Shown here in pieces: positions 6,291 through 59,694 of a stretch of DNA of 64,000 nt (position 1 is the stretch's first letter; each line of letters starts with the position of its first letter). The stretch is taken from positions 17,486,001 through 17,550,000 of the forward strand of contig NC_087245.1 in assembly GCF_037042905.1 (NCBI RefSeq). The letters run 5' to 3'. A program made the position numbers and the translations under genes. Origin of the DNA: Lytechinus pictus. Taxonomy: Eukaryota. The notes beneath the pieces are model-generated. The model searched no databases. It saw only the letters and a list, made by a program, of their open reading frames with translations, and was not told the DNA's origin.

Positions 6291-6314
6291 ATGAAAAAAA
6301 CATCAGTAATCATG
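6291..6314 (+). CDS. copy 1 exon 1 coding part (MKKTSVIM)
   Basis: Acceptor ctgctctcag at 6271-6280, ATG at 6291, donor gtaagc at 6315; identical in all three copies. Confidence 0.6.
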
Positions 6315-15782: not shown

Positions 15783-15838
<56 letters not shown>

Positions 15839-18800
15839 GTATGTGTGTGTGTGTAATTATGTTAAACTCAATTGTGTCTGCCCCCCCCCCCACCTCTGAG
15901 GAGAGATTTCAGCACCCCCACTGAAAAAATCGTTCCCAGGTCCCTGTCTCGGCCCCCCCCCCCCCCAGTGGCGTACCTAGGATTTTCCACAGGGGGGCAA
16001 AAAAGGTCTTTCAAGCTCGTCAGGGGGGCAGGGATACGTCCTTTGCATGGGTTGTGGCTCGTCACGGGTTGGCGGAGCAAAAAAGGGGGAAAAAGGAAAG
16101 AAAGACAAAAAAGCTGAAAAATGAATAAAGGAGGGAAAAGGAGGGAAAAGAGAGGAGAAAAAAGCAGTGGAGGAAGACGAGTGAATAAAATAAGATGAGG
16201 GGAAGACTTGGAAAATAAAAAGAATCTTTCATGCCACTACATAAATTTTTTGCTTGCGCTTCGAGCTCGCATTATCTTGTTCAATATGGAGTTTAAATAT
16301 CAAGTTTGGAAGTCAATATACAAAACATATTTCACCTCGGAAATCGAACTTTTATTATTTCGTATGATTTATAAATTAATTTTTATAAAGTGCTCTTTAA
16401 AAATGTCAGTTTTATGGTCTGAATATTAACATTTTCTGCTCGCGCTGCGCGTTCGTAAAATTTTTATTTTTCAGGTACCTATTATTTTCGTGTATTCCAA
16501 AAATTTTCAAAATATCCCTTTTCAGGTCTGATTGTCAAAACGTATCAGCTAGCGCTGCACGCTCGCATTTTTATTGGCGAGTTATGTATGTCTCAATATT
16601 GATTATACTATTAAAAAAAACTTAAATCCCCTTTTCATGACAGTTTATAAAAAAATTTGGCTCGCGATTTGCGCTCGCATTAATGGTTACGATATATTAA
16701 CTGATGCATCCTATTTATAATTACAGAAGTGCTTGAAATGTCCGGTTTTCAGGCCATAATATCATCAGATTTCGCACCCTCATTAGGCATTAATTTTGTT
16801 TCATCTCGCGCTTAGCAAGGGGAATAGGAAGATAGTCATCATTTTGTAAAAGAAAGTCAATGCATAACATATAATACACAGTATATAAACAAATCGCCAA
16901 TGTTTGGGTATAAAATGGATCAATGAAAATTAAAACATATACACGCGATTGAAATTATTTGAAAAAAGGAAAAAAAAATGATCATAACAATAATAAAAAA
17001 GCAGAGTAAATAGACAACAGTTTATTTAAAATGAATAAACCTATGAAGCAAGAACCTCGAGAATGAATTGCTTCAAAATCTTCAAAGCTTGTTGGGCTCC
17101 CAGGGACAGGAGAAAGCAATGACGTCTATCGGTGCATGGAAAATTCAATACAAAAGATGGTTGATGGGCCAGGCCTGGGAATGTCTCTCTCACACACTGA
17201 CCCTCAAATACGAACACTCTCAAAACCATCAACACAAGCACCAACCCGCCCCTCCCCCTCCTCTCCCTCTCTGCAACAGACCCAGCCAGAAGGGTACAGC
17301 AGACTGCCTCACACCCAATCCCGCCCAGTCATCATTTTCATATGCATGTCCTAAGGATGTCCGGTCCTATGTTAAAACTCAATGTGATAATAATGTGTGA
17401 TCCTTATCCACCTCACAATTTTCCTACAAAGTTAAGTTCATACTTCAATACTTTACATATTTAAAAGAAATATTCGGGGAAACGGATAAACGATCAAAAT
17501 TACCGTCTTGTCGATTTTTTTCACAACACAGTTGCTGAATTCAAAGAGCTTTGCGACCCACACCCTTTATCATGTAAGAACATCAATCTATCTGGAGGGA
17601 GATCGATTCAACTCATTCCAAGATTAGCATCAAAATTAAACGATCCTGAACCAGTTCTGGTAAAACTCCCATCTTGGCGCCATGTTGTCTGTGTTTTGCC
17701 GAAAAGAAATGGTGAGTGCATAAAAACAATCTTCTACAGATATTTTGGACATGATAGGCACATTGGCGGCGGAAACCAAACAATTTAGGGGGACCACCAA
17801 AAATTTTTGACAAGCAAAAAAAAGTTATATATCAACCAAAATTTTAGGGGGGACCGACAAAATTTTTTGACAAGCAAAAAAAAAAGGTCATCAACGAAAA
17901 ATTTAGGGGGGGATCGTCCCCCCACCTCAAATTTAGGGGGGACACGTCCCCCCGTCCCCCCCCCCCCGCTTCCGCCGCATATGGGGCTTTGTCTTCTTAT
18001 ATCATAAGATTTCGCACAATTATCATTGTAAGGGGCGGTAAAGTATTTAAATAATTACCTGTGGTGAAAAGGATGGAAATAAAAGTATTTGCTAGGCTAT
18101 TTAGATTACAGTTGCTCATTTCACCTTCCTTTAGATGGGTATAATTAGAACCGGTTCCCTCAAGCCATTTGGCGCATGTTCCTGTTCTTATAATATGCTA
18201 AAGAGATACTGTAACCGAGCAAATTGCTTTATTGCACCGAATATGCAAACGTCTATACATGTTATTCATTGGCAGCGGAACGGTTTTTGAAAGGGGGGGG
18301 GGGGCTGAATTACAAGCGCAAAATCGCAATCATGGTCATTTTTGTGTTTTTGTACACGGTTTTGGAAAAGCCCCCAGCCCCCCCCCCCCCCCCCCCCCGG
18401 TTCAGTGAGCCCTGTTAAACTGTAAGTGTGGAAGGGTCTGGTTAATTAAAGACTTCATTATTAACTGTTTCCCCTTGTTTGTCTTTTATTTCGGATCGTG
18501 CTTTCCTACTATATCTTTTGCGATTCGTATTGACTGCATCCTATGCAGTCTGCTTCCTCTTCTTGAACCATGGACCGTCTTTTGCAGTGTTTCGTAAATA
18601 TCTTATCGAGAATAGTATTTCTATACAATGTGCCTTTACACTATCTTCTATAGGCCGGCCAGACCGGATTCGTTAATGTTTTTGCTCTCTTCCATCATCA
18701 TGATCATGTGTCCATGTTTCTACTACACGAAGTTCTGTCCCAACACAATCACCATCCGTAAATAGTTTTTTAATTGGCATTATTATATCGTCTTTGTATT

Positions 18801-21800
18801 ATTATGTCAATATCGTAGAGACTCCTACGGATGCATCACCACCACTAGAAACTCTCGATGGAGGAAGTTCGACAACTTCGCCAGAAATTTCATCCAGTGG
18901 ATCAACTGAAGCTTCGTCAGAACAAGCAATGACCCCAATGACAGGCTCTTCAACTACTCCATCAAAACCTACGACCAATGGTAAAACAAGCCCCCAGCCC
19001 CCCTTCTCGGTTCCGTGCCCATAATAATCTGTAAAAGCTCCATGGTTAAAGTTATATGGTCTGATAACACTTCCATAATGATTTTCCTCGTTTGTCCTTT
19101 ATGTCGGATCATGCATTCCTCCTAACTCTTTTGCAGTCTTCTTCCTTTTCTTGAACCATGGATCATGTTTTTCATTGTTCCTTTAATGTCTCATCGAGAA
19201 TGGTACTGCTATCAATGTTTCTTCTAGACCAGACCGGTTTTGCTAATGTTTTTGCTCTCTTCCATTCATCTATGATCTTCCATGTTTCTCCTACACGAAG
19301 TTCTGTCCCAACACAATCACCATCGGTAATTGTTTTTTTATGTCAATATCGTATAGATACTCCCATGGATGCATCACCGCCCCAAGAAACTCCTGGTGGA
19401 GGAAGTTCGACAACTTCACCAGAACTTTCTTCCAGTGGATCAACTGAAGCTTCGTCAGAACAAGCAATGACCCCAATGACAGGCTCTTCAACTACTCCAT
19501 CAGAACATACAACGGACGATGCAGCGACAACTTTGTCACACCCTACAACAATTCCTTCTACGGAGGCTTTACCTGAAACCACAACAAAAGGAACTTCAGG
19601 TGTGAATTCGTGTAAGATGCTCTATTCAATGGGGCATCAAACAAGTGGTGTCTATGCCATCTCTCCTAGCGGTGTGGGACTGACCGATGTCTACTGCGAT
19701 ATGACCACCGACAACGGAGGGTGGACAATCTTCCAGGTACGTTCCGCCAGATTCTCGGTGTGAAATATTATAATATTTTCTGGATATGACAAAATCTATC
19801 AATTTTTTTTGTTTTATTTTATCGCATTTTTTCCCTTTTCTTTTCTTTTTCTTTTTTCTTTCTTTATAAGGAACTTTCGCTCTATCCACCATATCTGACC
19901 TCTTCATGATTTATAATAGGCCTGAGTAGAATTTTGTAGGCTTGCTCGCTTCGCCCGCTTACAAATTTTCTGTAATATTCCAATGTACCCAAACTCAACC
20001 CTCTCTTTTGTTTTATCACGCTCATTATTCGACAATATTTTCATTGATTTATTTTCATATATCACATCCTTCACAATAATAAAATGCATACAGAAACGTT
20101 ATGACGGATCTGTGGATTTTTACCGCAATTATAACGAGTATGTTCGTGGATTTGGTGACGTCGAGGGCGAATACTGGTTGGGATTAGACCAACTCTACTT
20201 ACTTGCTAAAGATGGAGTCGAACTCAGAATCGATATGGTTGATTACGATAACAATCCATTCTACGCTCATTATGGCAGTTTTAGCATTGGGAGTACCAAC
20301 ACCAAGTAAGGTTCTTACAATTTTCCTTCGCTATATTTTTTTTTTTGCAGAATTTTCTGCATTTATTGTAAAGTCAAAATAAATTTACAATACATAAACA
20401 TAATCGTAGTATGACATTAAAGTACATTGAAATGTGACAAATTTATAGCAGTGTGATAACAAAATTCAGACATGAATACAATTTAAGGATAAGACAAAGT
20501 AGTGAAAAACAAATGCAGTGGCAAACTATATAAGCAAAATAAATGCTTGAGTAATAGCAGCCAAAATATATATAGAGAGAGCGTATGGAAAACGTTACAT
20601 TTTGGAAAAGCTGCAGTTTCATTTTGTAATTTATCTAAAATCTTCTCTATCAGATGACACCACGATATATTTTGTGCATGCTTGAGCGCAAAACGACATG
20701 TTTTATCAGGGTGACGAGAAATGGCTTGCGCCATAATGAAGGAAATGGGCAATGTGAAAGTAACCGACTGATAAGGACTTAAAATCAACTGATTTGCTTT
20801 TAAGAACTTTTCACATACTACTTATTCTTAATCATGCATTGACAATAGAAAACTTAAAAAATATACTTCGTGTATTCACATGCGTAATTTTGACAGCTTT
20901 CTCAAAATGAAACGTTTATCATTCATCAAATTTTTATTTTTGTTTATATTGCTTATAATTCTACATTACAATACCTTTCTTTAACATGTTAAGAATGTCT
21001 AATAACCCAGTTATTTTGATGATCAAAAGAGAGGTTGTGTGTCTTGTAACATTTCTACTAACTACCGAACCAACGGCAACGGTAATTATTAACCCTAATC
21101 GTCCCCGGGTAATTTGAGTCTTGTCACTCCCGGGTCATTATACCCCCCCCCCCCCGCTCGTAATCGCGATATCTGCGCGATGGTGGAAAATGACGGTTGC
21201 ATCTTAGCCAACTTTCACTATCTATATTATCAATTTAACTATGTTAATTTGTGCATGAAATTAGAATTTGGGGGTAAATCTATCGATAAAGCCATTGAAA
21301 ATGGACAAGGAATAACAAAGATATGACATTATATGGATTTGCATTATTTCGGTGAAACAGTTCTATACACGTCTTCATGAATATTCAATGAGTATAGACC
21401 GATAATGTCATATCCCCACTTCTTCTTTTGTATTTTATGGCATGAAATTATGTTTATTCATTTTTTCTTTAAGAACAAAAATTAAAATGGATAGACAATT
21501 GATATAATGCATGAGATAGTCATGGCTGCAACTTATTTTATCGTGATAAGAATATATAATACACACATGTATGAAAATATGAAATAAATATGATTTCATG
21601 TAATAACATAAAAAGGGAAAGTGGGGATATGACATCATCAGCCCACCTACTGAATATTCATGCAACGTTCATATAACTGTTTCACAATATTGCTGAATTT
21701 TACTATAGGCAAATATACTTAGATATAATAATTTTCAACCCGGAGTAACCCTTTATTCTGATGTTGATTACATTTTCAATGTAATGCTTGTTTAAATTCA

Positions 21801-22365
21801 TTTTAAAGTAAATGAATAAAGATATTAATGAATAAATTTGAAGAAAAAATAGATAAAATATAATGACGTGACAAAAAAATTATGGATTACAAAATAATAT
21901 TTACACACGGAGCATTTTTTAACTTAGGGGCCCTACGAAAATCAGAAGTAAAAATGAAAGTGCTGATACTTCAGCTACTACGTCAGACATATTTTCATTA
22001 TATTTTCTCTTCAATCGCAATCTTGAATTTACATGACTGTTTTAAGGTTCTATATAGTCTTAGACTAAATTCAATTTAATGTATGTATTTACTATCTTCA
22101 ATAAAGCTACAGAATCGTGTTTTCATCATATACCGGTACTGCAGGAGAAGGGCTAGATGCAGCCAACGGACAAGCCTTCTTAACTTATGACAGTGGTGGA
22201 TCAACGAATAATTGTGCTTCTCGGTACCATGGGGCGTGGTGGTATAACAACTGTTATACAGCCAACTTGAATGGGGTACACGGACTCCAAAATGATTTGC
22301 AAGGGATTGTTTGGGATTGGCCTGACACAAAATACATGAGAGCTACAGAAATGAAGTTAAGATGA
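6291..22365 (+). CDS. FReD gene copy 1: secreted fibrinogen-related-domain protein with mucin-like stalk (ficolin/tachylectin-5/MFAP4-like FReD), 428 aa; join(6291..6314,11706..11775,17532..17711,18819..18980,19357..19736,20094..20305,22107..22365)
   Basis: Seven exons with GT/AG boundaries and compatible phases, 1287 nt in total. Signal-peptide-like start MKKTSVIMSVVCSSQSLPIFLFLIPASFVHG. FReD motifs: SCK..[45 protein letters not shown], NC...GAWWYNNCYTANLNG, TEMKLR. The same exons are conserved in the paralogues. Confidence 0.85.
7734..11202. mobile_element. hAT-like MITE (CAGGGGCCGCGGAAC ends) inserted in the LINE RT
   Basis: TIR caggggccgcggaac / gttccgcggcccctg; tgag duplicated on both flanks. 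Confidence 0.75.
7866..11159. mobile_element. 3.3 kb foldback-type non-autonomous element with TGT...ACA ends
   Basis: Termini tgttacacccacaaatgtaataa / ttattacatttgtgggtgcaaca. Outer tandem cccacaaatgtaataa repeats and inner ~57 bp ccagacccggtt repeats are mirrored at both ends. Inserted in a poly-G run. Confidence 0.8.
11706..11775 (+). CDS. copy 1 exon 2 (hydrophobic signal-peptide core)
   Basis: tttag acceptor, gtaagt donor; encodes SVVCSSQSLPIFLFLIPASFVHG; conserved in copies 2 and 3. Confidence 0.7.
12013..17430. mobile_element. cluster of nested non-autonomous DNA elements in copy 1 intron 2
   Basis: Absent from copies 2 and 3. TIR pair gagtggataccatgcgcgacc (12013) / ggtcgcgcatgatatccactc (13576-13596), several G/C-run TIR pairs, and GCGAGCGCGAAGCGCGAGC arrays. 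Confidence 0.75.
13391..13551. mobile_element. palindromic MITE with TTA TSD (PIF/Harbinger-like)
   Basis: ~60 bp TIR taccttggtcacatttgctctacggcggcc... / ...ggccgccgtagaacaaatgtgaccatggta, flanked by tta on both sides. Confidence 0.8.
17532..17711 (+). CDS. copy 1 exon 3 (unrecognised 60-aa Cys-containing domain)
   Basis: cacag acceptor, gtgagt donor, 180 nt, phase 1-1; VAEFKELCDPHPLSCKNINLSGGRSIQLIPRLASKLNDPEPVLVKLPSWRHVVCVLPKRN. Confidence 0.75.
17761..17983. mobile_element. hAT-like MITE in copy 1 intron 3
   Basis: cattggcggcggaa ... ttccgccgcatatg; absent in copies 2 and 3; same family as 26218-26546. Confidence 0.65.
18819..18980 (+). CDS. copy 1 exon 4 (Ser/Thr/Pro-rich stalk module)
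   Basis: cgtag acceptor, gtaaaa donor, 162 nt, phase 1-1; ETPTDASPPLETLDGGSSTTSPE...PTTN. Confidence 0.7.
19357..19736 (+). CDS. copy 1 exon 5 (second stalk module plus FReD start)
   Basis: tatag acceptor, CAG|gtacgt donor; ends [16 protein letters not shown]. Confidence 0.9.
20094..20305 (+). CDS. copy 1 exon 6 (FReD middle)
   Basis: atacag acceptor, gtaagg donor; [32 protein letters not shown]... Confidence 0.92.
20336..20570 (-). mobile_element. short poly(A)-tailed retro-insertion (3' end only)
   Basis: T-run at 20336-20346 followed by tttatt (reverse AATAAA); absent from the copy 2 intron. Confidence 0.5.
22107..22365 (+). CDS. copy 1 exon 7 (FReD C-terminal P subdomain)
   Basis: aag acceptor (an in-frame cag alternative lies 6 nt downstream); YRIVFSSYTGTAGEGL...GAWWYNNCYTANLNG...EMKLR then TGA. 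Confidence 0.9.
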
Positions 22366-23392: not shown

Positions 23393-25914
23393 AATACGTA
23401 CCTTTTGAATTTATCTTTGATACAACCGATGTAGAAGAGGCTTGGCTAATATAGTATGACGTATAAATTTATATGTCTCTCTCTCACTTACACACCCTCC
23501 CTGCATGATTTTCTATTATTCATGCCATGTAAGTAGACTTAAGTTTTTGACGAAATACTGTTATGTTTTGTTTATCTGCTTATATTCCTCAGATTGTATA
23601 TTTGTTTTGCATTACCTAGTATTTTTGTTTTGAACAAAATATTGGCGAATGCCAGTGATGCTCTAATAGTAAATTCAGTTCAATTCATGTTAGCAGTAAA
23701 CAAACATACTCCAAGGAAGAACAAAACGAGTTCGGTCTAAAGTCTGTCCTTGGATGAACGGCGAGTTAATTAGTGAGATGAATAGACGAAATAAGTTTCA
23801 TAAAATGATATTAAAGTATAAGTGCTCAGAATATACTGACAATGGACAAAACATCGAGAATTACCGTTTACCCTTTCAAGCCACTTTAAATTTTAATGTG
23901 GAAGTGTGTGGACAATTGTAAAATGTTGATTTAAAACTTGTCAAATTTTGAGGATTTTCACATTTTTGAACTGTCTTACTGTTATACCATATTTTGCCCA
24001 ATTTCTGGATATATTAATGTTTTGATATATATTTCTTCATGTGTTAATTTAATATCCACATTTTGTGATCAAATAAAATTGGAAATATTCGCAATTATCT
24101 ATTTTCAACAAAACTCACTTTCTAGTTTTCCCATGAAACTGGCGGCATCACAGGTCGCCAACAAAGGCTACATTGCACCTGTGTATTCTTTTGTACTTCT
24201 TTAGAAATCGAAAGGTACATGAATTAATTTGCATTTCGTTGACACTCCTTCTTTTTTACCTCCATGGAATTATCGACCAATTTCTCTCCTTAGTTATAAT
24301 TTTTATCGAAGATTCAAGAGAGAGCTGTAGTTGCGTAACTATGGGGGGGGGGGGCAGAGATAACGGAGGAAAAAGAAGAGAATTGAGGAAGGAAGAAAGA
24401 GAGACATTGTGACAGACATTGTGGGAAATGAAAGAAGGGGAATGTAAATAATATTATTTTGATAATTTGATGAAAAATAATGTGCATAGGGTCTATGTGC
24501 TCATCACTCCTGGTGCTAATATTTACGGAAGCTTAAAAGTGCCACCGAGATGACGAGATAATTCCTCGTCTTCTCGACTTTTTGGGTCCGATAAAGCGAG
24601 ACGGTGAAATTCCAAATCTCGTCTTCTCGACTTCTCGGATACGAGAAGATGAGAAAGCGAGATTCCAAATCTCGTCTTCTCGACTTCTCGGGTATGTGAA
24701 GATGAGAAAGCGAGATTCCAAATCTCGTCTTCCCGTCTTCTCGTGTATGTGAAGGTGAGAAAGTGAGATTCCGAATCTTGTCTTCTCGACTTCTCGGGTA
24801 TGTGAAGGTGAGAAAGCGAGATTCCAAATCTCGTCTTCCCGTCTTCTCGGGTATGTGAAGGTGAGAAAGCGAGATTCCGAATCTCGTCTTCTCGACTTCT
24901 AGGGTATGAGAAGGTGAGAAAGCGAGATTCTAAATCTCGTCTTCTCGACTTCTCGGGTATGTGAAAATGAGAAAGCGAGATTCCGAATCTCGTCTTCTCG
25001 ACTTCTAGGGTATGAGAAGGTGAGAAAGCGAGATTCTAAATCTCGTCTTCTCCACTTCTCGGGTATGTGAAGATGAGAAAGCGAGATTCCGAATCTCGTC
25101 TTCTCGACTTCTAGGGTATGAGAAGGTGAGAAAGCGAGATTCTAAATCTCGTATTCTCGACTTCTCGGGTATGAGAAGATGTGAAAGCGAGATTTCAAAT
25201 GTCGTCTTCTCGACTTCTCGGGTATGAGAAGGTGAGAAGGCGAGATTCCAAATGTCGTCTTCTCGACTTCTAGGGTATGAGAAGGTGAGAAAGCGAGATT
25301 CTAAATCTCGTATTCTCGACTTCTCGGGTATGAGAAGATGAGAAAGCGAGATTTCAAATGTCGTCTTCTCGACTTCTCGGGTATGAGAAGGTGAGAAGGC
25401 GAGATTCCAAATCTCGTCTTCTCGACTTTTTCGGTATTAAAATGTACGGAAGCTTGAGAGTGCCACAATGGTAGTCTGTCGTCATCCTGAGCCATTGTTT
25501 GTCTATATATAGGCACAGAACACGGGTTAAAGCCCGATAGACCGCGGGTCCGATAGACCGCGGGTCCGATAGTCCGCGGGTCTGATAGACCGCGGGTCCG
25601 ATAGACCGTGGGTCCGATAGTCCGCGGGTCCGATAGACCGCGGTTCGATAGACTGCGGGTCCAATAGACCGCGGGTCCGATAGTCCGCGGGTCCGATAGA
25701 CCGCGGGTCCGATAGTGCGCGGTGTGTGTAAAATTATGATCAGGATATAGTGAGATCCAATTAAGAGGTCAAAAGGCCAATGATACGAGTCCATGGGGTT
25801 CAATAACGATGACCCTAAGGACAATCTACTTCAAGGAAAATATTATCCCCATATTTTTATCGTCAGGGACTGCTACCCACCCCCCCCCCGGAAATTTACC
25901 CTCTATAGACGCCA

Positions 25915-30750: not shown

Positions 30751-32329
30751 TGGGGTGGGGGGGGGGGGGGTGAGGCAGTTCCCCCTCCGCCAACCATGGA
30801 TCCGCACCTGATAGAACCCCATGGCCTCGTATCATTTGACCTTTGGACCTCTCGATGACATTTGATATATCTGATCATAATTTTACACACACTGCGGACT
30901 ATCGGACCCGCGGTCTATCGGACCCGCGGACTATCGGACCCGGGGTCTATAGGACCCGCGGTCTAACGGACCCGCGGTCTAACGGACCCGCGGTCTATCG
31001 GGATGTCCCCAGAACACGAGCCCTCTCGCCTCTGTAAAAAATGGCTCCTCGTTGACCGCGCTGTCCTGTCTTTTCGCCTTTTTACGGAAGCTTAAGAGTG
31101 CCACCGAGATGACGAGATAATTCATCGTCTTCTCGACTATTTTGGTCCAATAAGGCGAGAAGGTGAAATTCCAAATCACGTTTTCCCGACTTCTCGGGTA
31201 CGAGAAGGGGAAAAGGCGACATTTGGAATCTCGTCTTACCGACTTCTCGGGTACGAGAAGGGGAGAAGGCGACATTCCAATTCTCGTCTTCCCGACTTCT
31301 CGGGTACGAAAAGGGGAGAAGGCGACATTCCGAATATCGTCTTCCCGACTTCTCGGGTACGAGAAAATGAGAAGGCGAGATTTGGAATCTCGTCTTCCGA
31401 CTTCTCGGGTACGAGAAGGTGAGAAGGCGAGATTTGGAATCTCGCTTTCTCATCTGCTCATACCCGAGAAGTCGAGAAGACGAGGTTTGGAATCTCGCTT
31501 TCTCACCTTCACATACCCGAGAAGTCGAGAAGACGAGATTTGGAATCTCGCTTTCTAATTTCCTCATACCCGAGAAGTCGAGAAGACGAGGTTTGGAATT
31601 TCGCTTTCTCACCTTCACATACCCGAGAAGTCGAGAAGACGATATTTGGAATCTCGCTTTCTCATCTTCACATACCCGAGAAGTCGAGAAGACGAGATTT
31701 AGAATCTCGCTTTCTCATCTTCGCATACCCGAGAAGTGGAGAAGACGAGATTCCAAATGTCGCCTTCTCATCTGCTCATACCCGAGAAGTCGAGAAGACG
31801 AGATTTTGAATCTCGCTTTCTCACCTTCACATACCCGAGAAGTCGAGGAGACGAGATTTAGAATCTCGCTTTCTCATCTTCACATACCCGAGAAGTCGGG
31901 AAGACGAGATTTGGAATCTCGCTTTATCGCCTTCTCGTATCCGAGAAGTCGAGAAGACGAGATTTGGAATTTCACCGTCTCGCCTTATAGGACAAAAAAA
32001 GGCTGAGAAGACGAGATACCGGATCACGCCTTCTCGCTTTATCGGACCCAAAAAGTCGAGAAGACGAGGAATTATCTCGTCATCTCGGTGGCACTTTTAA
32101 ACTTCCGTAAATATTGCCTGATTAGATACATAATCCCGTTCAAGAGGATTAAATGGAGCCATGCATTTTCAAGTCATACACCAAATATTTTTCCTCGAGC
32201 GCTCGCCTGGCCTAATTCGCTTTGTGAATTAGGATATCCCTCGCTTCGCTCGGGAAGCAGCCGCCAGGGCCTCGACAAGCATGACAAGAGGCTACGTCAG
32301 TGGCTGTTCAGACAGCAGCATCAAATGCA

Positions 32330-36144: not shown

Positions 36145-36168
36145 ATGAAAAAAACATCAGTAATCATG
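36145..36168 (+). CDS. copy 2 exon 1 coding part
   Basis: ATG AAA AAA ACA TCA GTA ATC ATG | gtaagc. Confidence 0.6.
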
Positions 36169-39100
36169 GTAAGCTCATACTTTCTATTATTATTATTATT
36201 ACTATTATCATTATTACTATTATCATTATCGCAGATTTCACACCCGTCATGATTTATCATGGACATAATTACGGTTTCATGATGTTTACTTTTACTTCTT
36301 AGGCCAATTTTCCATTTCCTTTCTTGGTCAATTAAAAAAAAATGAACTAAAATAGTTGCCTGTTATGTACATGTTGCACTCCTGTATTTGTCCCCCCCCC
36401 TCATCTCTCTCTCTCTATATATATATATATATCTCTCTCTCCCTCCTTGAACAGTCTTGAAAACAAGTCCTTATTTTTTTTTAATGTTCGATTTATTTAG
36501 GGAAAATTGATTTTGTATTCAGTTACGTCCATCACAATCGTCATGGAATTCTTAATTGATATCTCTTTCTGCTTCTTTCAGTCTGTCGTATGCTCATCAC
36601 AGAGTTTGCCTATTTTCCTGTTCCTCATTGCAGTGAGTTTCGTTCATGGTGGTAAGTTTGAATTTGATATTTTGACCCTTTTTTATTTGTATTGATTATC
36701 ATGATTACAAACAAAACATCTCATAATTACTGTAGACAAAAAGAAAAACAACAGAAAAAATAACTAAAATAATAATCAGAATAACAATATCAATAAGAAT
36801 ATAAAGTGACCCGGTTTTTAATCATACACTTCTTATAATATTTTTGCGATACATAAATCGCGGTATAATCTGTGAAGAGAATGTAATGTTGGATTGTAAC
36901 ATAGCCAATCCTTACTATCTTTTCAACAGTAAAGTAAATTGTGGAGAAAACACTCGGAATGATCACGAATGTTTTATAGATCCCGTGATCCCACTTTTAT
37001 TTTTTGTAACTTCCAGTTTAGTTCATACTTCAGTACTTTACATATTTAAAAGAAATATTAGGGGAAACGCATAAACGATCAAAATTACCGTCTTGTCGAT
37101 TTTTTTTTACAATACAGTTGCTGAATTAAAAGAGCTTTGCGACCCAGACCCTGTATTATGTAAGAACATCACTCTATCTGGAGGGAGATCGATTCAACTC
37201 ATTCCAAGATTAGCATCACCATCAAACGATCCTGAACCAGTTCTGGTAAAACTCTCATCTTGGCGCCATTTTGTCTGTGTTTTACCGAAAAGAAATGGTG
37301 AGTGCATAAAAACGATCTTCTACAGATATTTTAGACATGATAGGCCTATGTCCCCTTATATCATAAGATTTCGCAAAAATATTTTCTAGGCAATTTGGAT
37401 TACTGTTGCTCATTTCACCTTTCTTTAGATGGGTATTATGACCGGTTCCCTCGAGCCATTTGGCGCATCTACCTCCCGGATCTTCCTGTTCCTATAATAT
37501 GCTAACGAGATACTGTAACCGGCGTGTGGTCTATCGTGTTTAAATATTTCTGGAGGAGCTGCATCTGTTACAGGTGCTCTTCGAATTGTTATTTTTGTGT
37601 GACATTGTAGAGTTTTGCTTCTGACCAAATTGCTTTGTTGCACCAAATATGCAAAAGTCTATACATGTTATTCATTGGCAGCGGAACGGTTTTGAAAGGG
37701 GATGGGGCTGAACATACATAAAATTGCAATCATGGTCATTTTTGCGTTTTTGTACAAAGTTTTAGGAAAAGTGGGGCTGAAGCCCCTAGCACCCCCCCCC
37801 CCCCCCCCCCCCGTTCAGTGAGCCATGTTAATCTGTAAATGTGGAAGGGTCTGGTTATTTACAGACTTCATTATTAACTTTTCCCCTTGTTTGTCCTTCA
37901 TTTCGGATCGTGCTTTCCTACTATCTTTTGCAAAGAGCGATTTTGTACGATTCGTATTGACTGCATCCTATGCAGTCTGCTTCCTTTTCTTGAACCATGG
38001 ACCGTGTTTATCAGTGTTTCGTAAATATCTTCTCGAGAATAGTACTTCTATACAATGTGCCTTTACCCTATCTTCTATAGGCCGGCCAGACCGGATTCGT
38101 TAATGTTTTTGTTCTCTTCCATCATCATGATCATGTGTCCATGTTTCTACTACAGGAAGTTCTGTCCCAACACAATCACCATCCGTAAATAGTTTTTTAA
38201 TTAGCATTATTATATCGTCTTTGTATTATTATGTCAATATCGTAGAGAATCCTACGGATACATCACCACCACTAGAAACTCTCGATGGAGGAAGTTCGAC
38301 AACCTCGCCAGAAATTTCATCCAGTGGATCAACTGAAGCTTCGTCAGAACAAGCAATGTCAGGCTCAGTAACTACTCCATCAGAACCTACGACCAATGGT
38401 AAAACAAGCCCCCAGCCCCCCTTCTCGGTTCCGTGCCCATAATAATCTGTAAAAGCTCCATGGTTAAAGTGATAGGGTCTGATAATACTTCCATAATGAT
38501 TTTCCTCGTTTGTCCTTTATGTCGGATCATGCATTCCTCCTAACCTTTTTGCAGTTAGGTATCGCGATTTTGTACGATTCTTATTGACCCAATCCTGTGC
38601 AGTCTTCTTCCTTTTCTTGAACCATGGATCATGTTTTTCATTGTTCCTTTAATGTCTCATCGAGAATAGTACTGCTATCAATGTTTCTTCTAGACCAGAC
38701 CGGTTTTGCTAATGTTTTTGCTCTCTTCCATTCATCTATGATCTTCCATGTTTCTCCTACACGAAGTTCTGTCCTAACACAATCACCATCGGTAATTGTT
38801 TTTTATGTCAATATCGTATAGATACTCCCATGGATGCATCACCGCCCCAAGAAACTCCTGGTGGAGGAAGTTCGACAACTTCACAAGAACTTTCTTCCAG
38901 TGGATCAACTGAAGCTTCGTCAGAACAAGCAATGACCCCAATGACAGGCTCTTCAACTACTCCATCAGAACCTACGACCAATGGTAAATCAAGCCCCCAG
39001 CCCCCCTTCTCGGTTCCGTGCCCATAATAATCTGTAATAGCTCCATGGTTAAAGTGATAGGGTCTGATAACACTTCCATAATGATTTTCCTCGTTTGTCC

Positions 39101-42100
39101 TTTATGTCGGATCATGCATTCCTCCTAACCTTTTTGCAGTTAGGTATCGCGATTTTGCACGATTCTTATTGACCCAATCCTGTGCAGTCTTCTTCCTTTT
39201 CTTGAACCATGGATCATGTTTTTCATTGTTCCTTTAATGTCTCATCGAGAATAGTACTGCTATCAATGTTTCTTCTAGACCAGACCGGTTTTGCTAATGT
39301 TTTTGCTCTCTTCCATTCATCTATGATCTTCCATGTTTCTCCTACACGAAGTTCTTTCCCAACACAATCACCATCGGTAATTGTTTTTTTATGTCAATAT
39401 CGTATAGATACTCCCATGGATGCATCACCACCCCAAGAAACTCCTGGTGGAGGAAGTTCGACAACTTCACCAGAACTTTCATCCAGTGGATCAACCGAAG
39501 CTTCGTCAGAACAAGCAATGACCCCAATGACAGGCTCTTCAACTACTCCATCAGAACATACGACAGACGATGCAGCGACAACTTTGTCACACCCTACAAC
39601 AATTCCTTCTACGGAGGCTTTACCTGAAACCACAACAAAAGGAACTTCAGGTGTGAATTCGTGTAAGACGCTCTATTCAATGGGGCATCAAACAAGTGGT
39701 GTCTATGCCATCTCTCCTAGCGGTGTGGGACTGACCGATGTCTACTGCGATATGACCACCGATAGCGGAGGGTGGACAATCTTCCAGGTACGTTCCGCCA
39801 GGTTCTCGTTGTGAAATGAATCTATCTGATGTTTATGTTTTATTAAGATGGTCAATATTTTTGCTTAATCGCATCTTTTTTTTCGTTTTTCTTTTCTTTT
39901 CTTTTTTTAAAAGAACTTTTGCTCTATCCACCATTTCATTCTGGCCTCTTCATCATGTTAATATAGGCCAAATAAGTAGAATTTTGTAGACTTGCTCGCT
40001 TCGCCCGCTCACAATTTTTCTAAAATATTCCAACGTATCTAAACTCAACCTTCTCTTGCACGCTCACTATTCGATAATTTTTTTTCACATATCACATCCT
40101 TCACAATAATAATATGCATACAGAAACGTTATGACGGATCTGTGGATTTTTACCGCAATTATACCGAGTATGTTCGTGGATTTGGTGACGTCGAGGGCGA
40201 ATACTGGTTGGGATTAGACCAACTCTACTTACTTGCTAAAGATGGAGTCGAACTCAGAATCGATATGGTTGATTACGATAACAATCCATTCTACGCTCAT
40301 TATGGCAGTTTTAGCATTGGAAGTACCAACACCAAGTAAGGTTCTTACAATTTTCCTTCGCTATAATTATAGAGAGAGCGTATGGAAAACGTTACATTTT
40401 GGAAAAGCTGTCAAAATTACGCTTATTAATGAAGTATCATTGTGTAATATCTCTAAAATCTTCTCTATTAGATGACACCACGAGATATTTTGTTCATGCT
40501 TGAGCGCAAAACGACATGTTTTATCAGGGTGACGAGAATGGCTTGCACCATAATGAAGGAATGGGCAGTCAAATCAAATGATTTGCTCGAGTTATTAAGA
40601 TCTTTTCACATACTATTTATTCTTGATTAGTACAGGATAGAAGAGGCATAACATTGTTTTTACATATATATTATATTTTTTGATGGTTTATTGTCAATTT
40701 TAGAGTGCTGATTGCGAATCTGAATGATGCCACTCGTGTAACCTTGAGCATTTTCCGCAAATTGGCAAAATCCAATATGGCCGCCAAAATATGCAAATTA
40801 CCCATGGAAATCATAAAAATTGCCCGCACATTGGCAACAAAATGCATGAAATTGTGTGGCAGGAGTGAAATACTCGCTGAAAAAATAATTTTTGACAAAA
40901 TATCTATTTTCTGGATCATAATGGCCGCCATAGGCCTCTGTATACTCTATTATGTACAACATGAATAGGGAAAACTTCACAAAAAATGAGCACTAAACTG
41001 CAAGAAATCGTGATCTATGAACGAAGTTCTGTATGCAAATCGTCATTACTAACGAGATATATCATTTATTATTTCATGTATGGGAACATTTCTGTATTTT
41101 GATATTTAAAATAGCCGCCACTGGCCAAAACAGTATTATGTACAATGGCAAAGGGGGCCAAAAAAACCCACAAGAGTGAGCACTAAAATGCATATTATTA
41201 AGATAAACGAGTGGAATACTGACTAAAAACATAATTGTTAGCGAAATTTATCATTTAATATGCCATGTATGTGATAAATGTTGTATTTTGATATTCAAAA
41301 TTGCTGCCTAAGACCCTAACAGTATTATGTACAATGAGAAAGAGGACCAAAGAAATTACAAGAGGTGGCACTAAAATGCATATGTATGTGATAAAGTTAC
41401 GTAATACTGTCTAAAAAAAACCATAATGAATATTCGTAGTACACGTAAATGGAGTAGATCTCCAACGAAATATAGTTTGTGTTAAATACTGTATTTTGAC
41501 TTTCAAAATGGCCGCCATAGACATTGACTGTATTATATATAATGCGAACTGGGAAACTAATATTCACAGGAGTGAGCACCATAAATGTACGTTATAGTGA
41601 TCCATGAGTAAAATATTGCCTGAAAGCATAATTTCTAACAAGATATATAATTTATTCTGCCAGTTAGGTGACAAATACTGTATTTTAAAAGTAAAAATGG
41701 CTACTACAGGCCCTTACGGTATATTATGTACCATGTAAATGGAAAAACATGATTTCAACAGATTTTGGCTTTGCTTGACTGAATGGTGTTGTATGAGTGA
41801 AATATTGTCTGAAAACATCATTTATAACAAGATATATCATATCTTGTGTAATTTAGGTGATAAATACTGTATTTAAACATTCAAAATGGCCGTCATATGC
41901 CCTTTTGTGAAAATTATCTGTCCACATTCAAATTGACGATAAGGGCCTATGATGGCTATTTTCAATTTCAAAATGCAGCATTTTCAACTTAATTACAGAA
42001 GATATGATATATCTCGGCAGAAACCATGGTTTTAGACAATATTTCACCCTTACATCACAATTATATGCAATATTTATAGTCAAGCAAAGCCAAATTCTGT

Positions 42101-45100
42101 CAAAATTATATGTCACATGTTCCTATGTACATAATAATTTTAGGACCTATGGCAGCAATTTTGGATTTCAAAGTATACAGCATTTATTACCTCCATGACC
42201 AATATGTGATGTATGTAGTTAGAAATCATGTTTAAGACAATATTTTTAATCGTACATAACAGTTACATGCATTTTATGATTCTCACTCTTGTGAAAATTA
42301 GTTTGGTTAGGGCTTGTAGCGGCTATTTTGAATGTCAAAATACAGTATTTATCACCTACATGGCAGAAGAAATGCTATAATTCCTTCAAAATTATGTTTT
42401 CAAATAATATTTTACTCATACAACAGGATTATATGGATTTCATAGTCAAGCAAACCCAAATTCTTACAAAATTATATGTCCCCATTTACATTCTAGATAA
42501 TACTGTTAGGGCCTTTATGGGCCAATTTTGAATTTCACAATACAGCATTTATCTCATGCATGACAAAAGAAATGATATGCCTCGCTAGAAAACATGTTTT
42601 CAGACAAAATTTTACTCGTAGATCACAATTACATGCATTTTATGTTTCTTACTCTTGTGAAAAATAGTTTCTCCATTTGCATTGTACATAATAAATATAG
42701 GGCCCATGGCGGCCATTTTGAATGTCAAATTATAGCATTTATCACATACATGGCATAATGAATAATATCTTTTGTTAACAATTCTGTTTTTAGTCAGTAT
42801 TCCACTCGTTTATCTTAATAATATGCATTTTAGTGCTCACTCTTGTGAATTTTTTGGCCCCCATTGCCATTGTACATAATACTGTTTGGGCCAGTGGCGA
42901 CTATTTTAAATATCAAAATACAGCAATTTTCCCATACATGACATAATATATATATCTCGTTAGTAATGGTGATTTGCATACTGTACTTCGTTCATATATC
43001 ACGATTTCTTGCGGTTTAGTGCTCATTTTTGTGAAAATGAGTTTTCCCTATTCATGTTAAAAATAATAGAGTTTACAGAGGCCTATGGCGGCCATTTTGA
43101 ATATCCAGAAAATAGATATTTTGTCAAAAATTATTTTTTCAGAGAGTATTTCACTCCTGCCACAAAATTTCATGCATTTATTGCTAATGTGCGGGCAAGT
43201 TTTATGACTTTCATGGGTAATTCACATATTTTGGCGGCCGTATTGGATTTTGCCAATTTGTGGAAAATGCTCAAGGTTACACGAGTGACATCATTCAGAT
43301 TCGTAATCAGCACCCTCGAATTGACAAGCAACCATAAAAAAATATTGTATATATGAAAAAACAAGGTTCGTCAATTTTCTATGGGGCCAATCCTGGACTA
43401 AATCATGCTTAAAACAGCGGACAATAGACATTTTAAAAATCTATTTTGGGTATTCACATACGTGATTTTGACAGCTTTTTCAAAATGAAACGTTTATCGT
43501 TCATCAAATTTTGATTTTTGTTTATATTGCTTATGTAATTCTACATTACACATTACTACCGAACCAACAGCAACGGTAATTATCATTTCCCTAATCATCC
43601 CCGGGTAATTTGTGCCTTGTCACTCCCGGGACACCCCCCCCCCCCAGCTCGTAATCGCGATATCTGCGCGATGGCGGAAAATGACGGTTGCATCTAAGCA
43701 AACTTTCACTAAATCTATATTATCTTGTCCCATACACGGATTAACTATTTTTTTAAACTATGTTTTTTTATGGAATTTTTCGTCGATACTTCAAAGTGCT
43801 ATTTAAATCGAATGTTACAAGGGCCGCGAAACCGAAGGGGGGGGGGGGCGGGTGTTGCTTCATCTCTCCCAGTATTTAACCATTTTCACAAAGAGTGAAA
43901 ATGACCAACGATTTTATGCATGCCCCCCCCCCCCCCTCGCTTTCCATATCGTTCTGCAGCCCCTCTGTAAAAAGATACAGTTACTAATTTTGACTAGAAA
44001 CAGAGTTTACATTGGATTTGTGCATGAAATCACTTTTTTATAGCAAATTTGGGCCTAACAATAACCATGAACAGATGACCAATAAACAAATTACGATAAT
44101 TTAAGGGGTACTCCAGGCTGAAAATGATATGATTTGAAAAAGATTTAAAAAAAATAGACAAACAAAACACTGAAGAATTGTTTGAAAATGGACAAGGAAT
44201 AAAAAAGTTATGACATTATATAGATTTGCATTATTTCGGTGAAACAGTTCTAAACATGTCTTCATGAGTAGACCGATAATATCATATCCCCACTTGTTCT
44301 TTTGTATTTTTTTACATGAAAGTATGTTTATTCATTTTTTTCTTTAAGAACAAAATATAAAAGGATAGACAATTGATATAATATTTGAGATATTCATGGC
44401 TGCAACTTATTTTATAATGATAAAGATATATCACACACACATGTATGAAAATATGAAATAAATATGATTTCATGTAACAACATAAAAAGGTAAAGTGGGG
44501 AGGTGACATCATCAGCCCACCTACTGAATATTCATGCAACGTTCATATAACTGTTTCACAATATTGCTGAATTTTACTATAGGCAAATATACTTAGATAT
44601 AATAATTTTCAACCCGAAGTAACCCTTTATTCTGATGTTGATTACATTTTCAATGTAATGCTTGTTTAAATTTATTTCAAAGTAAATGAATAAAGATATT
44701 AATGGATGAATTGAAAAAAAATAGATAAAATATAATGACGTGACAAAAAATTAATGAATTACAAAATAATATTTATGCACGGAGCATTTTTCAACTTAGG
44801 GGCCCTACGAAAATAAGAAGTAAAAATAAAGGTGCTGATACTTAGAACCTCGGGTGCGATACGTCAGACATATTTTCATTATATTTTCTCTTCAATCGCA
44901 ATCTTGAATTTACATGACTGTTTTAAGGTTCTATATAGTCTTAGACTAAATTCAATTTAATGTATGTATTTACTATCTTCAACAAAGCTACCGAATCGGG
45001 TTTTCATCATATACCGGTACTGCAGGAGAAGGGCTAGATGCAGCCAACGGACAAGCCTTCTCAACTTATGACAATGACCATGATGACGGAATTGGTAATT

Positions 45101-45252
45101 GTGCTTCTCTGTACAAAGGGGGGTGGTGGTATAACAACTGTTATACAGCCAACTTGAATGGGGTACACGGACTCCAAAATGATTTGGAAGGGATTGTTTG
45201 GGATTACCCTAACCCAAAATACATGAGAGATACAGAAATGAAGTTAAGATGA
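36145..45252 (+). CDS. FReD gene copy 2, 481 aa; join(36145..36168,36582..36651,37118..37297,38246..38398,38822..38983,39408..39787,40124..40335,44988..45252)
   Basis: Eight exons with GT/AG boundaries, 1446 nt in total, open throughout. Has one extra stalk exon. The last exon (absent from the ORF track) reads YRIGFSSYTGTAGEGLDAANGQAFSTYDNDHDDGIGNCASLYKGGWWYNNCYTANLNGVHGLQNDLEGIVWDYPNPKYMRDTEMKLR*. Confidence 0.87.
36582..36651 (+). CDS. copy 2 exon 2 (signal peptide)
   Basis: ttcag acceptor, gtaagt donor; SVVCSSQSLPIFLFLIAVSFVHG. Confidence 0.7.
37118..37297 (+). CDS. copy 2 exon 3 (Cys-containing N-terminal domain)
   Basis: tacag acceptor, gtgagt donor, 180 nt open. Confidence 0.75.
38246..38398 (+). 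CDS. copy 2 exon 4a (stalk module)
   Basis: 153 nt, phase 1-1; 9 nt shorter than copy 1 exon 4. Confidence 0.7.
38822..38983 (+). CDS. copy 2 exon 4b (extra chimeric stalk module)
   Basis: 162 nt, phase 1-1; starts like exon 5 (DTPMDASPPQETPGGG) and ends like exon 4 (SEPTTN|gtaaat). Confidence 0.7.
39408..39787 (+). CDS. copy 2 exon 5 (stalk plus FReD start)
   Basis: 380 nt; ends VYCDMTTDSGGWTIFQ|gtacgt. Confidence 0.9.
40124..40335 (+). CDS. copy 2 exon 6 (FReD middle)
   Basis: 212 nt; KRYDGSVDFYRNYTEYVRGFG... Confidence 0.92.
40628..43400. mobile_element. Academ-like 2.8 kb foldback element in copy 2 intron 6
   Basis: Termini tagtacagga / tcctggacta; 3 bp TSD gat/aat; empty site ttcttaatcatgc at about 20825 in copy 1; long mirrored arms with ~175 bp subrepeats. 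Confidence 0.8.
44101..44628. mobile_element. Kolobok-like MITE, partial copy at about 21290-21755
   Basis: ttaaggggtactccaggctgaaaat ... attttcaacccgaagtaacccttta. Confidence 0.5.
44988..45252 (+). CDS. copy 2 exon 7 (FReD P subdomain with canonical-type FSTYDNDHD loop)
   Basis: aacaaag acceptor; open to TGA at 45250-45252. Confidence 0.9.
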
Positions 45253-45355: not shown

Positions 45356-46096
45356 CATGGACCTATGAAGAGATGGACATTCATCGCTTAGATAATGAAT
45401 TCACTAACAGGTGACGGTAATTGTCATCTGAATAACATTCTCTTCATACCGTAGTCTTCTTTGGTCCTATGATCGTCACCGTGAGAAGGGACTGAATTAG
45501 TTCGTGATTGGACATTTATATTTCACAAATTATATGCGCAGTTGATAGAAAATCAATGAAATAATGGATAATCGATGTGCAGTTTTTGTTTACCTTTGTT
45601 AATCTTAGTTCCATGTGTTTTATTTGGGGAAATGTCTGCATATTTTAATATAGAGGCAATATTGTGATTGATTGTTTACCATTTAAAATTCAATTTTCCC
45701 AAGTTTCTCCATAATATTCCAGATATACGTGGCACATAACATGTGTAGATCGTGTATCTTTCAATGTTATTGAGGTCCTTATGTGTGAGCGGTAGTTAGC
45801 GGATCGAATAATATCATATTTTATATCATAAAAATCGTCTGCTTCTCAAGTTTGCTGATCCATATATGAAGCATATTGACTGAAAGGCACATACTGAAAC
45901 AGGGGATCAGCCAACAAAAATCAAGACCGGGAAACTGTTCCGTCTTTGAGTGATCAGATACCCTTGGTAGTCATGGTAATTGCTATTGTTACAACACCTG
46001 TATGTTCTCATTAAGATGCGCATAACCAGGTGACGGTGACTATCATTGGGTCAAAGAAATGCTCGCGTTAATCGTCCATCTTTTCATAGGTCCATG
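45356..46096. mobile_element. P-element-like non-autonomous element in the copy 2 3' UTR/flank
   Basis: TIR catggacctatgaagagatggac / gtccatcttttcataggtccatg; 7 bp TSD GTATATT; empty site gtgtatattagaga at about 22460. Confidence 0.8.
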
Positions 46097-57484: not shown

Positions 57485-59694
57485 ATGAAAAAAACATCAG
57501 TAATCATGGTAAGCTCATACTTTCTATTATTATTATTATTACTATTATCTTTATTATTATTATCATTATCGCAGATTTCATATCCGTCATGAATTATCAT
57601 GGACATAATTACGGTTTCATGATGTTTACTTTTACTTCTTAGGCCAATTTTCCATTTCCTTTCTTGGTCAATAAAAAAAAATGAACTAAAATAGTTGCCA
57701 GTTATGTACACGTTGCACTCCTGTATTTGTCCCCCCCCCCCTCATCTCTCCATATATATATCTCTCTCTCCCTCCTTGAACAGTCTTGAAAACAAGTCCT
57801 TATTCTTTTTTAATGTTCGATTTATTTAGGGAAAATTTATTTTGTATTCAGTTACGTCCATCACAATCGTCATGGAATTCTTAATTGATATATCTTTCTG
57901 CTTCTTTCAGTCTGTTGTATGCTCATCACAGAGTTTCCCTCCCTTCCTGTTCCTCATTCCAGTGAGTTTCGTTCATGGTGGTAAGTTTGAATTTGATATT
58001 TTGACCCTTTTTTATTTGTATTGATTATCATGATTACAAACAGAACATCTCATAATTACTGTAGACAAAAAGAAAAACAACATAGAAAAAATAACTAAAA
58101 TAATAATCAGAATAACAATATCAATAAGAATATAAAGTGACCCTGTTTTTAATCATACACTTTCTTCTTATAATATTTTTGCGATTTATAAATCGCGGTA
58201 TAATCTGTGAAGAGAATGTAATGTTGGATTATAACATAGCCAATCCTTACTATCTTTTCAACAGTAAAGTAAATTGTGGAGAAAACACTCGGAATGATCA
58301 CGAATGTATCACAGATCCCGTGATCCCACTTTTATTTGTTGTAACTTCCAGTTTAGTTCATACTTCAGTACTTTACATATTTAAAAGAAATATTCGGGGA
58401 AACGCATAAACGATCAAAATTACCGTCTTGTCGATTTTTTTTAACAATACAGTTGCTGAATATCAAAAGAGCTTTGCGACCCAGACCCCTTATCATGTAA
58501 GAACATCACTCTATCTGGAGGGAGATCGATTCAATTCATTCGAAGATTAGCATCAACATCAAACGATCCTGAACCAGTTCTGGTAAAACTCCCATCTTGG
58601 CGCCATTTTGTCTGTGTTTTACCGAAAAGAAATGGTGAGTGCATAAAAACGATCTTCTACATATATTTTGGACATGATAGGCCTATGTCCCCTTACATCA
58701 TAAGATTTCGCAAAAATATTTTCTAGGCTATTTGGATTACAGTTGCTTATTTCACCTTTCTTTAGATGGGTATTATGACCGGTTCCCTCGAGCCATTTGG
58801 CGCATCTTCCTCCCGGATCTTCCTGTTCCTATAATATGCTAAAGAGATACTGTAACCGGCGTGTGGTTTATCGTGTTTAAGTATTTCTGGAGGAGCCGCA
58901 TCTGTTACAGGTGCTCTTCGAATTGTTATTTTTGTGTGACATTGTAGAGTTTTGCTTCTGACCAAATTGCTTTGTTGCACCAGATATGCAAAAGTCTATA
59001 CATGTTATTCATTGGCAGCGGAACGATTTTGAAAGGGGGAGGGGCTGAACATACACAAAATCGCAATCATGGTCATTTTTGCGTTTTTGTACAAAGTTTT
59101 GGGAAAAGTGGGGCTGAAGCCATGTTAATCTGTAAATGTGGAAGGGTCTGGTTAATTAAAGACTTCATTATTAACTTTTCCCCTTGTTTGTCTTTTATTT
59201 CGGATCGTGCTTTCCTACTATATATTTTGCAAAGAGCAATTTTGTACGATTCGTATTGACTGCATCCTATGCATTCTGCTTCCTCTTCTTGAACCATGGA
59301 CTGTGTTTTACAGTGTTTCGTAAATATCTTATCGATAATAGTACAATGTGCCTTTACACTATCTTCTATAGGCCGGCCAGTCCGGATTCGTTAACGTTTT
59401 TGCTTTCTTCCATCATCATGATCATGATATGTGTCCATGTTTCTACTACAAGAAGTTTTGTCCCAATACAATCACCATCCGTAAATAGTTTTTTAATTAG
59501 CATTATTATATCGTCTTTGTATTATTATGTCAATATCGTAGAGACTCCTACGGATGCATCACCACCACTAGAAACTCTCGATGGAGGAAGTTCGACAACT
59601 TCGCCAGAAATTTCATCCAGTGGATCAACTGAAGCTTCGTCAGAACAAGCAATGTCAGGCTCTTCGACTACTCCATCAGAACCTACGACCAATG
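57485..59694 (+). pseudogene. FReD gene copy 3, partial and probably pseudogenic; exons 57485..57508, 57911..57980, 58453..58634 (182 nt, +2 frameshift), 59542..59694; FReD exons not in window
   Basis: Exon 3 reads gaatatcaaaagagctt versus gaattcaaagagctt in copy 1, giving a premature TAG at 58548-58550. Homology to intron 4 stops at about 60354 at a TE insertion. Confidence 0.7.

Follow-up and report, generated by a model that had tools for sequence, protein, structure and literature searches.

Diversification of a predicted binding-site exon in a young tandem array of fibrinogen-domain genes of Lytechinus pictus

Several clustered or polymorphic gene families of invertebrates resemble the one described here. 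The FREPs of Biomphalaria are an expanded fibrinogen-domain defence family that was diversified through gene conversion and point mutation (PMC7588048), and the v-Themis proteins of Ciona are polymorphic fibrinogen-like proteins of the vitelline coat that are used in recognition (PMC7018956). The SpTransformer (Sp185/333) genes of sea urchins are clustered and similar to one another, with duplication, unequal crossing-over, conversion and, in some cases, a ratio of non-synonymous to synonymous rates (dN/dS, or omega) above 1 (PMC8634487). In the present study, a 64,000-nucleotide stretch of the genome of the sea urchin Lytechinus pictus (NC_087245.1, forward-strand positions 17,486,001–17,550,000; hereafter, the window) was found to hold two whole copies, A and B, and the start of a third copy, C, of one fibrinogen-domain gene as direct repeats. 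Copies A and B are units c01 and c02, the first two in an array of 13 tandem units. The last exon of copy B (44988–45252 of the window, + strand, as are all exons given below) is hypervariable, and its 87 codons and stop encode the P-subdomain half of the fibrinogen C domain (FReD). We consider it likely that this variable half of a 13-fold tandem gene is under diversifying selection on a predicted binding surface, is exchanged by conversion and unequal crossing-over, and provides an innate recognition repertoire. The evidence supports well that binding sites have diversified in this young tandem array and that gene conversion has acted at the scale of the exon; this kind of process is already known, and the array is new. 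A literature search, with most subscription journals outside its scope, found no account of this array.

Every unit encodes a hydrophobic leader, a 60-codon exon with three cysteines, one to three Ser/Thr/Pro-rich stalk exons and one fibrinogen C domain. All five proteins scanned, three of them from array copies, matched PF00147 (Fibrinogen_C) with 187–201 bits against a cutoff of 22, and protein P0020, which matches the last exon of copy B, gave an E value of 3e-59. Fibrinogen_C was the only domain above the cutoff; the Pfam scan of the five proteins gave no hit to an immunoglobulin-family domain at E 0.1 and none to collagen, the stalk being rich in Ser, Thr and Pro instead. The best solved matches, ficolin-2 (E 5e-50), FIBCD1 (E 6e-48) and TL5A (E 6e-39), share the domain, and the Ca2+ aspartate pair and the P-domain cysteine pair of FIBCD1, TL5A and the ficolins align with the array proteins. 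In contrast to the ficolins with their collagen stalk, the array proteins have a Ser/Thr stalk, and no collagen or transmembrane part was seen. The encoded protein is predicted to be secreted because it has a leader and lacks a membrane segment, two features assessed by eye (the signal peptide from its hydrophobic stretch). FREPs carry one or two immunoglobulin-superfamily domains before the fibrinogen domain, whereas the array proteins showed no such hit, and the diversity of the array is seen among the copies of an assembly, in the P-subdomain exon. The SpTransformer genes are an echinoid cluster of like pattern from an unrelated protein family; the variation of the array lies on a folded domain of known structure, which allows the sites under selection to be located on a pocket already described. 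Judged by domain content and alignment, the array protein is a member of PF00147 and is not a ficolin, a FREP or a canonical acetyl-binding lectin. Major histocompatibility complex class I genes also combine a non-synonymous excess at the binding site with segmental exchange between sequences; their fold and function are different, and the likeness is one of evolutionary pattern only. Coral tachylectin-2 has a different fold as well. Positive selection on that invertebrate lectin has been published (PMC2880987), and no hypervariable array is described in the available parts of the FIBCD1 paper (PMC3908420).

The last exon is whole in 11 of the 13 units; c03 lacks it and in c13 it is broken after codon 46, and both were excluded from all selection tests. 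Nine distinct last-exon proteins are encoded by the 11 whole copies, the exons of c04 and c11 and those of c08 and c09 being identical. In a tree-free count, the exon has 55 non-synonymous and 8 synonymous distinct variants (44 and 6 once every column near an indel is removed), compared with 8 and 6 for the upstream part of the FReD (Fisher p 0.016); the nearly invariant second FReD exon (212 nt, 40124–40335 in copy B) has 4 and 2. Over the 55 pairs of copies, the first 116 residues of the domain differ at 2.0 positions on average and at 5 at most, and the 87 residues of the last exon at 14.8 and 25. Non-synonymous variants per site amount to 0.25 in the last exon versus 0.11 in 389 flanking sites (p 1e-4), and synonymous variants per site (0.125) equal the flank rate of 0.11 (p 0.45). 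Only 12 of the 63 variants fall at third codon positions (p 0.009), and all indels preserve the frame. The variant spectrum, with 27 transitions, 36 transversions and just 2 CpG transitions, resembles that of the flanks. Deaminase or CpG hypermutation was tried as an explanation and rejected, its signature not being seen in this spectrum.

Attention had been drawn to this exon by a sequence-only reading of copies A and B. The last-exon peptides and the two-codon indel that it quoted were recovered in copy A at 22107–22365 (85 codons) and in copy B at 44988–45252, together with the single N/T change in exon 6 and the M/T and N/S changes in the FReD part of exon 5; each of these two exons also has one silent change. 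The changes in the last exon are mostly non-synonymous, as was claimed (12 non-synonymous and 1 synonymous outside the indel loop). The name exon 7 fits copy A; in copy B, which has two separate Ser/Thr exons, the variable exon is the eighth. The flanks, which had been called nearly identical, are so over the nearest 100–130 nt (2.3% difference in the last 130 nt of the intron and 1.0% in the first 100 nt of the 3′ flank) but not farther up the same intron (7–8%) or in the intron between exons 5 and 6 (19%), the masked exon itself differing by 5.6%. The pair was rejected as sole evidence of selection, 12:1 being within chance and the introns equally diverged; the excess goes beyond chance once the other nine whole copies are added.

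Tree topology changes along the gene, and mutually incompatible sites show a spatial order across its length (neighbour-incompatibility permutation p 0.001); when the last exon is taken by itself, its 22 informative sites give no significant sign of recombination (p 0.11). Exon 2 and the 350 nt that follow it have the same sequence in c02, c07, c09 and c10, and the last exons of these units differ by 7–9%. Unit c07 matches c02 at 14/14 diagnostic sites upstream, counted from −800 with sites −1193 to −842 dropped (misaligned intron), and at 51/55 downstream, and it matches its neighbour c06 at 20/20 sites from −34 to +240 across the exon (p 3e-16). One end of this tract lies in the interval from −140 to −34 and the other in that from about +240 to +307, so that little beyond the exon is covered. 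Conversion from c06 to c07 is the simplest reading, and it is very likely that the last exon has moved between copies by gene conversion. Positive selection or gene conversion had been proposed for the exon, and traces of both were found, as joint processes rather than alternatives. Unit c09 switches partner within the last intron and remains switched, resembling c08 from approximately +1500 of the intron on, a pattern suggestive of unequal crossing-over; an exon-limited tract from c08 was rejected for c09, since the c08-like state continues onward from the intron. The last intron of copy B contains a foldback element (40650–43368, no strand assigned) of 2.7 kb with arms of 0.7–1.1 kb (40650–41717 and 42306–43368, 79% alike), which is present in 10 of the 11 whole copies and absent from copy A. 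The c09 switch falls inside this element (+1000 to +1500 of the intron), in a single case, and one might guess that the element is a recombination hot spot.

Only one clean exon-limited tract was found, that of c07, and such tracts could be preserved by selection without any targeting. No separate silent donor segments or orphan donor exons were found outside the array units in a DNA search of the genome, the counts of which are lower bounds. That exon swapping is frequent, targeted or somatic appears doubtful. An equally tentative idea is a constant-plus-variable system, in which exon-sized gene conversion would supply near-identical gene bodies with complete binding-site exons, in the germ line and perhaps in coelomocytes, so frequently that each animal would have its own lectin repertoire, and pockets would be rebuilt by coupled in-frame indels round the disulfide.

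Selection was analyzed with our own implementation of codon site models (M8 versus M8a, M2a and M0). For the last exon, M0 gave an omega of 2.9, and M8 versus M8a gave a doubled log-likelihood difference (2dL) of 50.8 under F3x4, with omega of approximately 15 at 27% of codons. The difference was 42.0 under F1x4 and 35.0 with the strict set, and 49.4, 29.4 and 13.0 for subsets of 8 distinct types, 6 types and 4 indel-free close types, respectively. The site-wise check proposed along with the sequence-only reading thus yielded omega far above 1, not values at or below it. In selection-free simulations, the maximum 2dL was 3.7 for a clonal null and 15.4 with block recombination (14 runs each). 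The M8/M2a test was rejected as sole evidence after simulation of a more extreme null, and its likelihood ratio alone is not decisive because that null can mimic it. Unlike the likelihood ratio, the low synonymous share is decisive for selection: a tree-free share as low as the observed 8/63 occurred in no more than 1 of 250 runs under any of six nulls, and in no more than 7 of 500 runs under any of eight further nulls (kappa 1 or the flank value of 1.75). A site class with omega above 1 survives the recombination controls through these tree-free tests. There is little doubt in our view that the last exon is under diversifying selection.

The selected sites were placed on the predicted binding surface by sequence alignment to FIBCD1, which is gap-free from codon 3 to codon 60 of the last exon. 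In FIBCD1, the Ca2+ ligands are Asp393, Asp395, Ser397 and Asn399, a cis-peptide joins Asn413 and Cys414, and the S1 pocket comprises Tyr405, His415, Tyr431, Ala432 and Trp443 (PMC3908420). The Ca2+ positions correspond to codons 30, 32, 34 and 36, within the Ca2+ loop (codons 30–37, 45076–45099 in copy B), and the cis-peptide to codons 50–51. Tyr405 and His415 align with codons 42 and 52 in the segment from Cys38 to Tyr52 (45100–45144); Tyr431 falls in a gap between codons 65 and 66, and Ala432 and Trp443 align with codons 66 and 76, in the pocket floor and rim (codons 64–76, 45178–45216). A posterior of at least 0.99 was obtained at nine codons (34, 35, 36, 41, 43, 59, 67, 73 and 76), and all of these except 59 and 73 lie within one residue of a FIBCD1 Ca2+ or S1 position (target 24 of 87 positions, p 0.0014), in agreement with the clustering that had been expected of the variable sites. 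Codons 34–36 align with Ser397–Asn399, and codons 41 and 43 stand on either side of the Tyr405 equivalent. The variable residues would therefore line a Ca2+-supported S1 pocket as in FIBCD1.

The divergence had been placed in the Ca2+ and ligand-binding loop. The aspartates D30 and D32, equivalent to Asp393 and Asp395 in the Asp-x-Asp motif before the first P-domain cysteine, are kept in 10 of the 11 copies, copy A being the one without them; the variation affects the rim of the pocket and, within the loop, its carbonyl part. Codons 34–37 are deleted in c06, c07 and c10 (a four-codon deletion before the first cysteine), and the same three copies have an insertion of two to three codons at the second cysteine. 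Both P-domain cysteines (equivalents of Cys401 and Cys414) are present in 11/11 copies, with a spacing of 12 in eight copies, 13 in c10 and 14 in c06 and c07. Tyr405 is kept in 8 of the 11 copies and replaced by cysteine in three. This extra cysteine at codon 42 (45112–45114) was observed in c04, c11 and c12, and likewise in the Strongylocentrotus purpuratus protein P0026. The other pocket residues of FIBCD1 are replaced or gapped: His415 occurs in none of the 11 copies (Tyr at the aligned codon 52), Tyr431 has no aligned residue, and neither Ala432 (Leu, Val or Phe instead) nor Trp/Tyr443 (Pro, Ser or Thr) occurs in any copy. By this alignment, the canonical acetyl pocket of the ficolins, TL5A and FIBCD1 is not conserved, and since the pocket departs from the consensus, the ligands may be new. 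The acetyl pocket of these lectins accordingly finds little correspondence in the array, its residues being mostly absent; the proposed change of ligand specificity may reasonably be supposed, with an acetyl or carbohydrate compound as a putative ligand.

A different role would be that of a skeletal or extracellular-matrix FReD whose diversity has nothing to do with recognition. Skeletal proteomes of echinoderms do contain fibrinogen C proteins (PMC5460417), and the Ser/Thr stalk would fit a matrix protein. However, such a role does not explain why omega should exceed 1 at the positions of the pocket, and the S. purpuratus accessions in the available parts of that paper differ from XP_011667941, the one accession listed for a close relative, in a comparison by accession. 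We regard this role as highly improbable.

Several observations weigh against selection on a recognition surface. The extreme null, in which blocks recombined freely, site rates followed gamma 0.5 and double mutations made up 10%, gave 2dL values of 12.6–70.8 and reached the observed value in 2 of 14 runs. A binomial test against the exon's own synonymous sites gave merely p 0.06–0.08, and the non-synonymous excess falls to 1.5-fold (p 0.01) against all non-coding stretches, which include the highly diverged introns of copy A. For copies A and B by themselves, with non-synonymous sites making up about 78% of the total, the 12:1 ratio falls short of significance (p approximately 0.2 by a hand-worked binomial). 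The upstream exons also gave a weak M2a signal (2dL 9.3) from recurrent sites, which indicates that recombination inflates the test. The selected sites were called by naive empirical Bayes, the one-residue window for clustering was chosen once the sites were already known, and across all 33 variable sites just 14 lie inside it (p 0.016). Furthermore, 4 of the 13 units carry a lesion; three raw RNA runs returned 1, 2 and 0 reads in approximately 6% of each, which is not evidence of silence; and the array genes were not found, by the terms searched, in the L. pictus infection paper and its two supplements (PMC11688612).

Some of these points would suit an explanation without selection, in which a mutation hot spot, or an old patch escaping homogenisation, accounts for the exon and conversion alone for its mosaic. 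The strong recombination over the gene, the two runs of the extreme null and the binomial value all speak in its favour. On the other hand, a hot spot or old patch does not agree with synonymous variation equal to that of the flanks, the depletion of third positions, the frame-preserving indels or the flank-like mutation spectrum, and across the 14 simulated nulls the observed synonymous share was never reached in more than 7 of 500 runs. Such an explanation is very unlikely, and diversifying selection is preferred.

A protein search of the genome gave 37 matches, of which 12 have 77–100% identity and lie within C1:17.51–17.80 Mb, one 0.3-Mb stretch, and the other 25 have at most 55%. The DNA search with the last exon returned the same 12, all inside array gene units. 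As read from the region sequence, the 13 units have a single orientation, and nine are open in all exons checked. A frameshift is common to c03 and c08, and the third exon of c04 is interrupted by a stop; the lesions of these three units all lie in the three-cysteine exon. The final unit, c13 (C1:17746687–17798565), is split by large insertions and frameshifts, and its residual half exon is a mix of c01-type and c08-type variants. Near-identical blocks of 23.8 kb (99.4%) and 17.5 kb (98.8%) occur in the array. The larger one is a direct duplication (C1:17647823–17695374) that covers c08 to c10 and is either very recent or an assembly artefact.

These blocks, the identical last exons of c04/c11 and c08/c09 and the frameshift common to c03 and c08 could mean that the array is partly an artefact, with two haplotypes assembled end to end and some paralogues in fact alleles. 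However, the identical 5′ stretch is found in four units (c02, c07, c09 and c10), beyond what two haplotypes can supply, nine distinct exon proteins are impossible as two alleles, and the selection signal persists with eight non-redundant types. An artefact of this sort, which is quite unlikely, would cut the copy number and leave the finding intact.

Transcription of the array was seen in assembled contigs. In contigs of three runs, the end of the previous exon is joined directly to base 44988, which indicates spliced transcripts. The summed depth in run X1 was 144–517 on the exon and 3′ flank versus 5.75 on the intron, and its spliced contigs represent the c04/c11, c05 and c06/c07 types; a further type, c01, came from run X10. 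In run X2, a contig with a depth of 3.6, which is below reliable depth, suggests a c02-type exon with T67 and A81. One X1 contig of depth 71 carries an insertion form found in no assembled copy, and further types are therefore likely in other animals.

The presence of several exon types together in one run also bears on the nature of the binding partner. Selection could be real and the partner the animal's own, such as a gamete-coat or self/non-self ligand; this is the main rival to a microbial target. The polymorphic vitelline-coat v-Themis proteins of Ciona provide a precedent (PMC7018956), and a pocket without the conserved acetyl residues leaves room for a protein partner. However, v-Themis proteins belong to multi-allelic loci that are each paired with a sperm receptor gene, whereas the array consists of 13 units with a constant 5′ body (no search was made for a linked receptor gene). 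Its diversity is found among many tandem paralogues of a single assembly and is confined to one exon, and an own partner is accordingly unlikely. By analogy with FREPs and ficolins, microbes or parasites are rather likely to be the selective agent, and the same analogy points to an innate immune role for the array proteins.

For the preferred reading, selection by microbes or parasites on a binding surface, the following sequence of events may be proposed. Unequal crossing-over would have built the array and would still reshuffle its units, with the leader, stalk and domain core staying near uniform. Amino-acid changes and in-frame indels next to the pocket would be favoured because new specificities result, and conversion would carry a pocket exon into another gene body. 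Each exon type may bind a different surface, and the stalk may hold the domain away from a surface or mucus layer. The array thus offers a young example, small enough to be tractable, of how binding sites diversify within a fibrinogen-domain family of a deuterostome, with nine pocket exons on one near-constant scaffold in a laboratory sea urchin and a seemingly single-copy comparator in a sister species. With this scaffold and comparator, it becomes testable whether the expansion of invertebrate FReD families really brings differences in binding specificity.

The nearest database proteins are those of L. pictus, followed by one L. variegatus gene, and Strongylocentrotus relatives are more distant. 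The L. variegatus protein has 9–12 differences from the array upstream (116 residues) and 13–22 in the last exon. By these counts, the paralogues are far closer to one another upstream than to L. variegatus, and in the last exon they are separated by about the interspecies distance. Two DNA runs with differences matching the L. variegatus protein gave one unbroken contig each across the exon, and the differences include at least four silent ones at codons where all 11 L. pictus copies agree. Contigs drop rare variants, which bears on the reading of these runs as single-copy; the sister species probably has a single copy, and the array would have expanded after the split from L. variegatus. The two runs differ from each other at one exon place at least (45111, altering codon 41), in a single observation. 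Codon 41 is the most variable site of the array, with five residues in 11 copies.

Copy A (6312–22365) has seven exons, with the start codon at 6312 and further exons at 11706–11775, 17532–17711, 18819–18980, 19357–19736, 20094–20305 and 22107–22365; its last exon lacks both Ca2+ aspartates, and it matches protein P0015. Copy B has its start codon at 36166–36168, followed by a predicted signal-peptide exon at 36582–36651, the 180-nt three-cysteine exon at 37118–37297, two Ser/Thr/Pro-rich stalk exons at 38246–38398 and 38822–38983, and an exon at 39408–39787 that contains the Ser/Thr end of the stalk and the first 45 codons of the FReD. Copy C (c03) is present in the window with its 5′ part (57506–59694) and has the frameshift in the three-cysteine exon. 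This exon has no match in Pfam or the ESM Atlas; it is partly common to an S. purpuratus relative, and its phase permits in-frame skipping. The stalk (38246–39787 in copy B) varies by whole exons, one to three per copy, and a 23-codon insert in c03, c05, c08 and c12 indicates that stalk length varies among copies as well. Just beyond the 3′ flank, copy B has an insertion of approximately 0.74 kb (45356–46096) with no counterpart in the other copies. A 53-bp unit forms arrays at 24565–25428 (16 copies) and 31152–31970 (11 copies), with 16-bp arrays alongside, and these arrays are likely to be the ends of one large repeat element. The 53-bp arrays are partly opposite in orientation between copies A and B.

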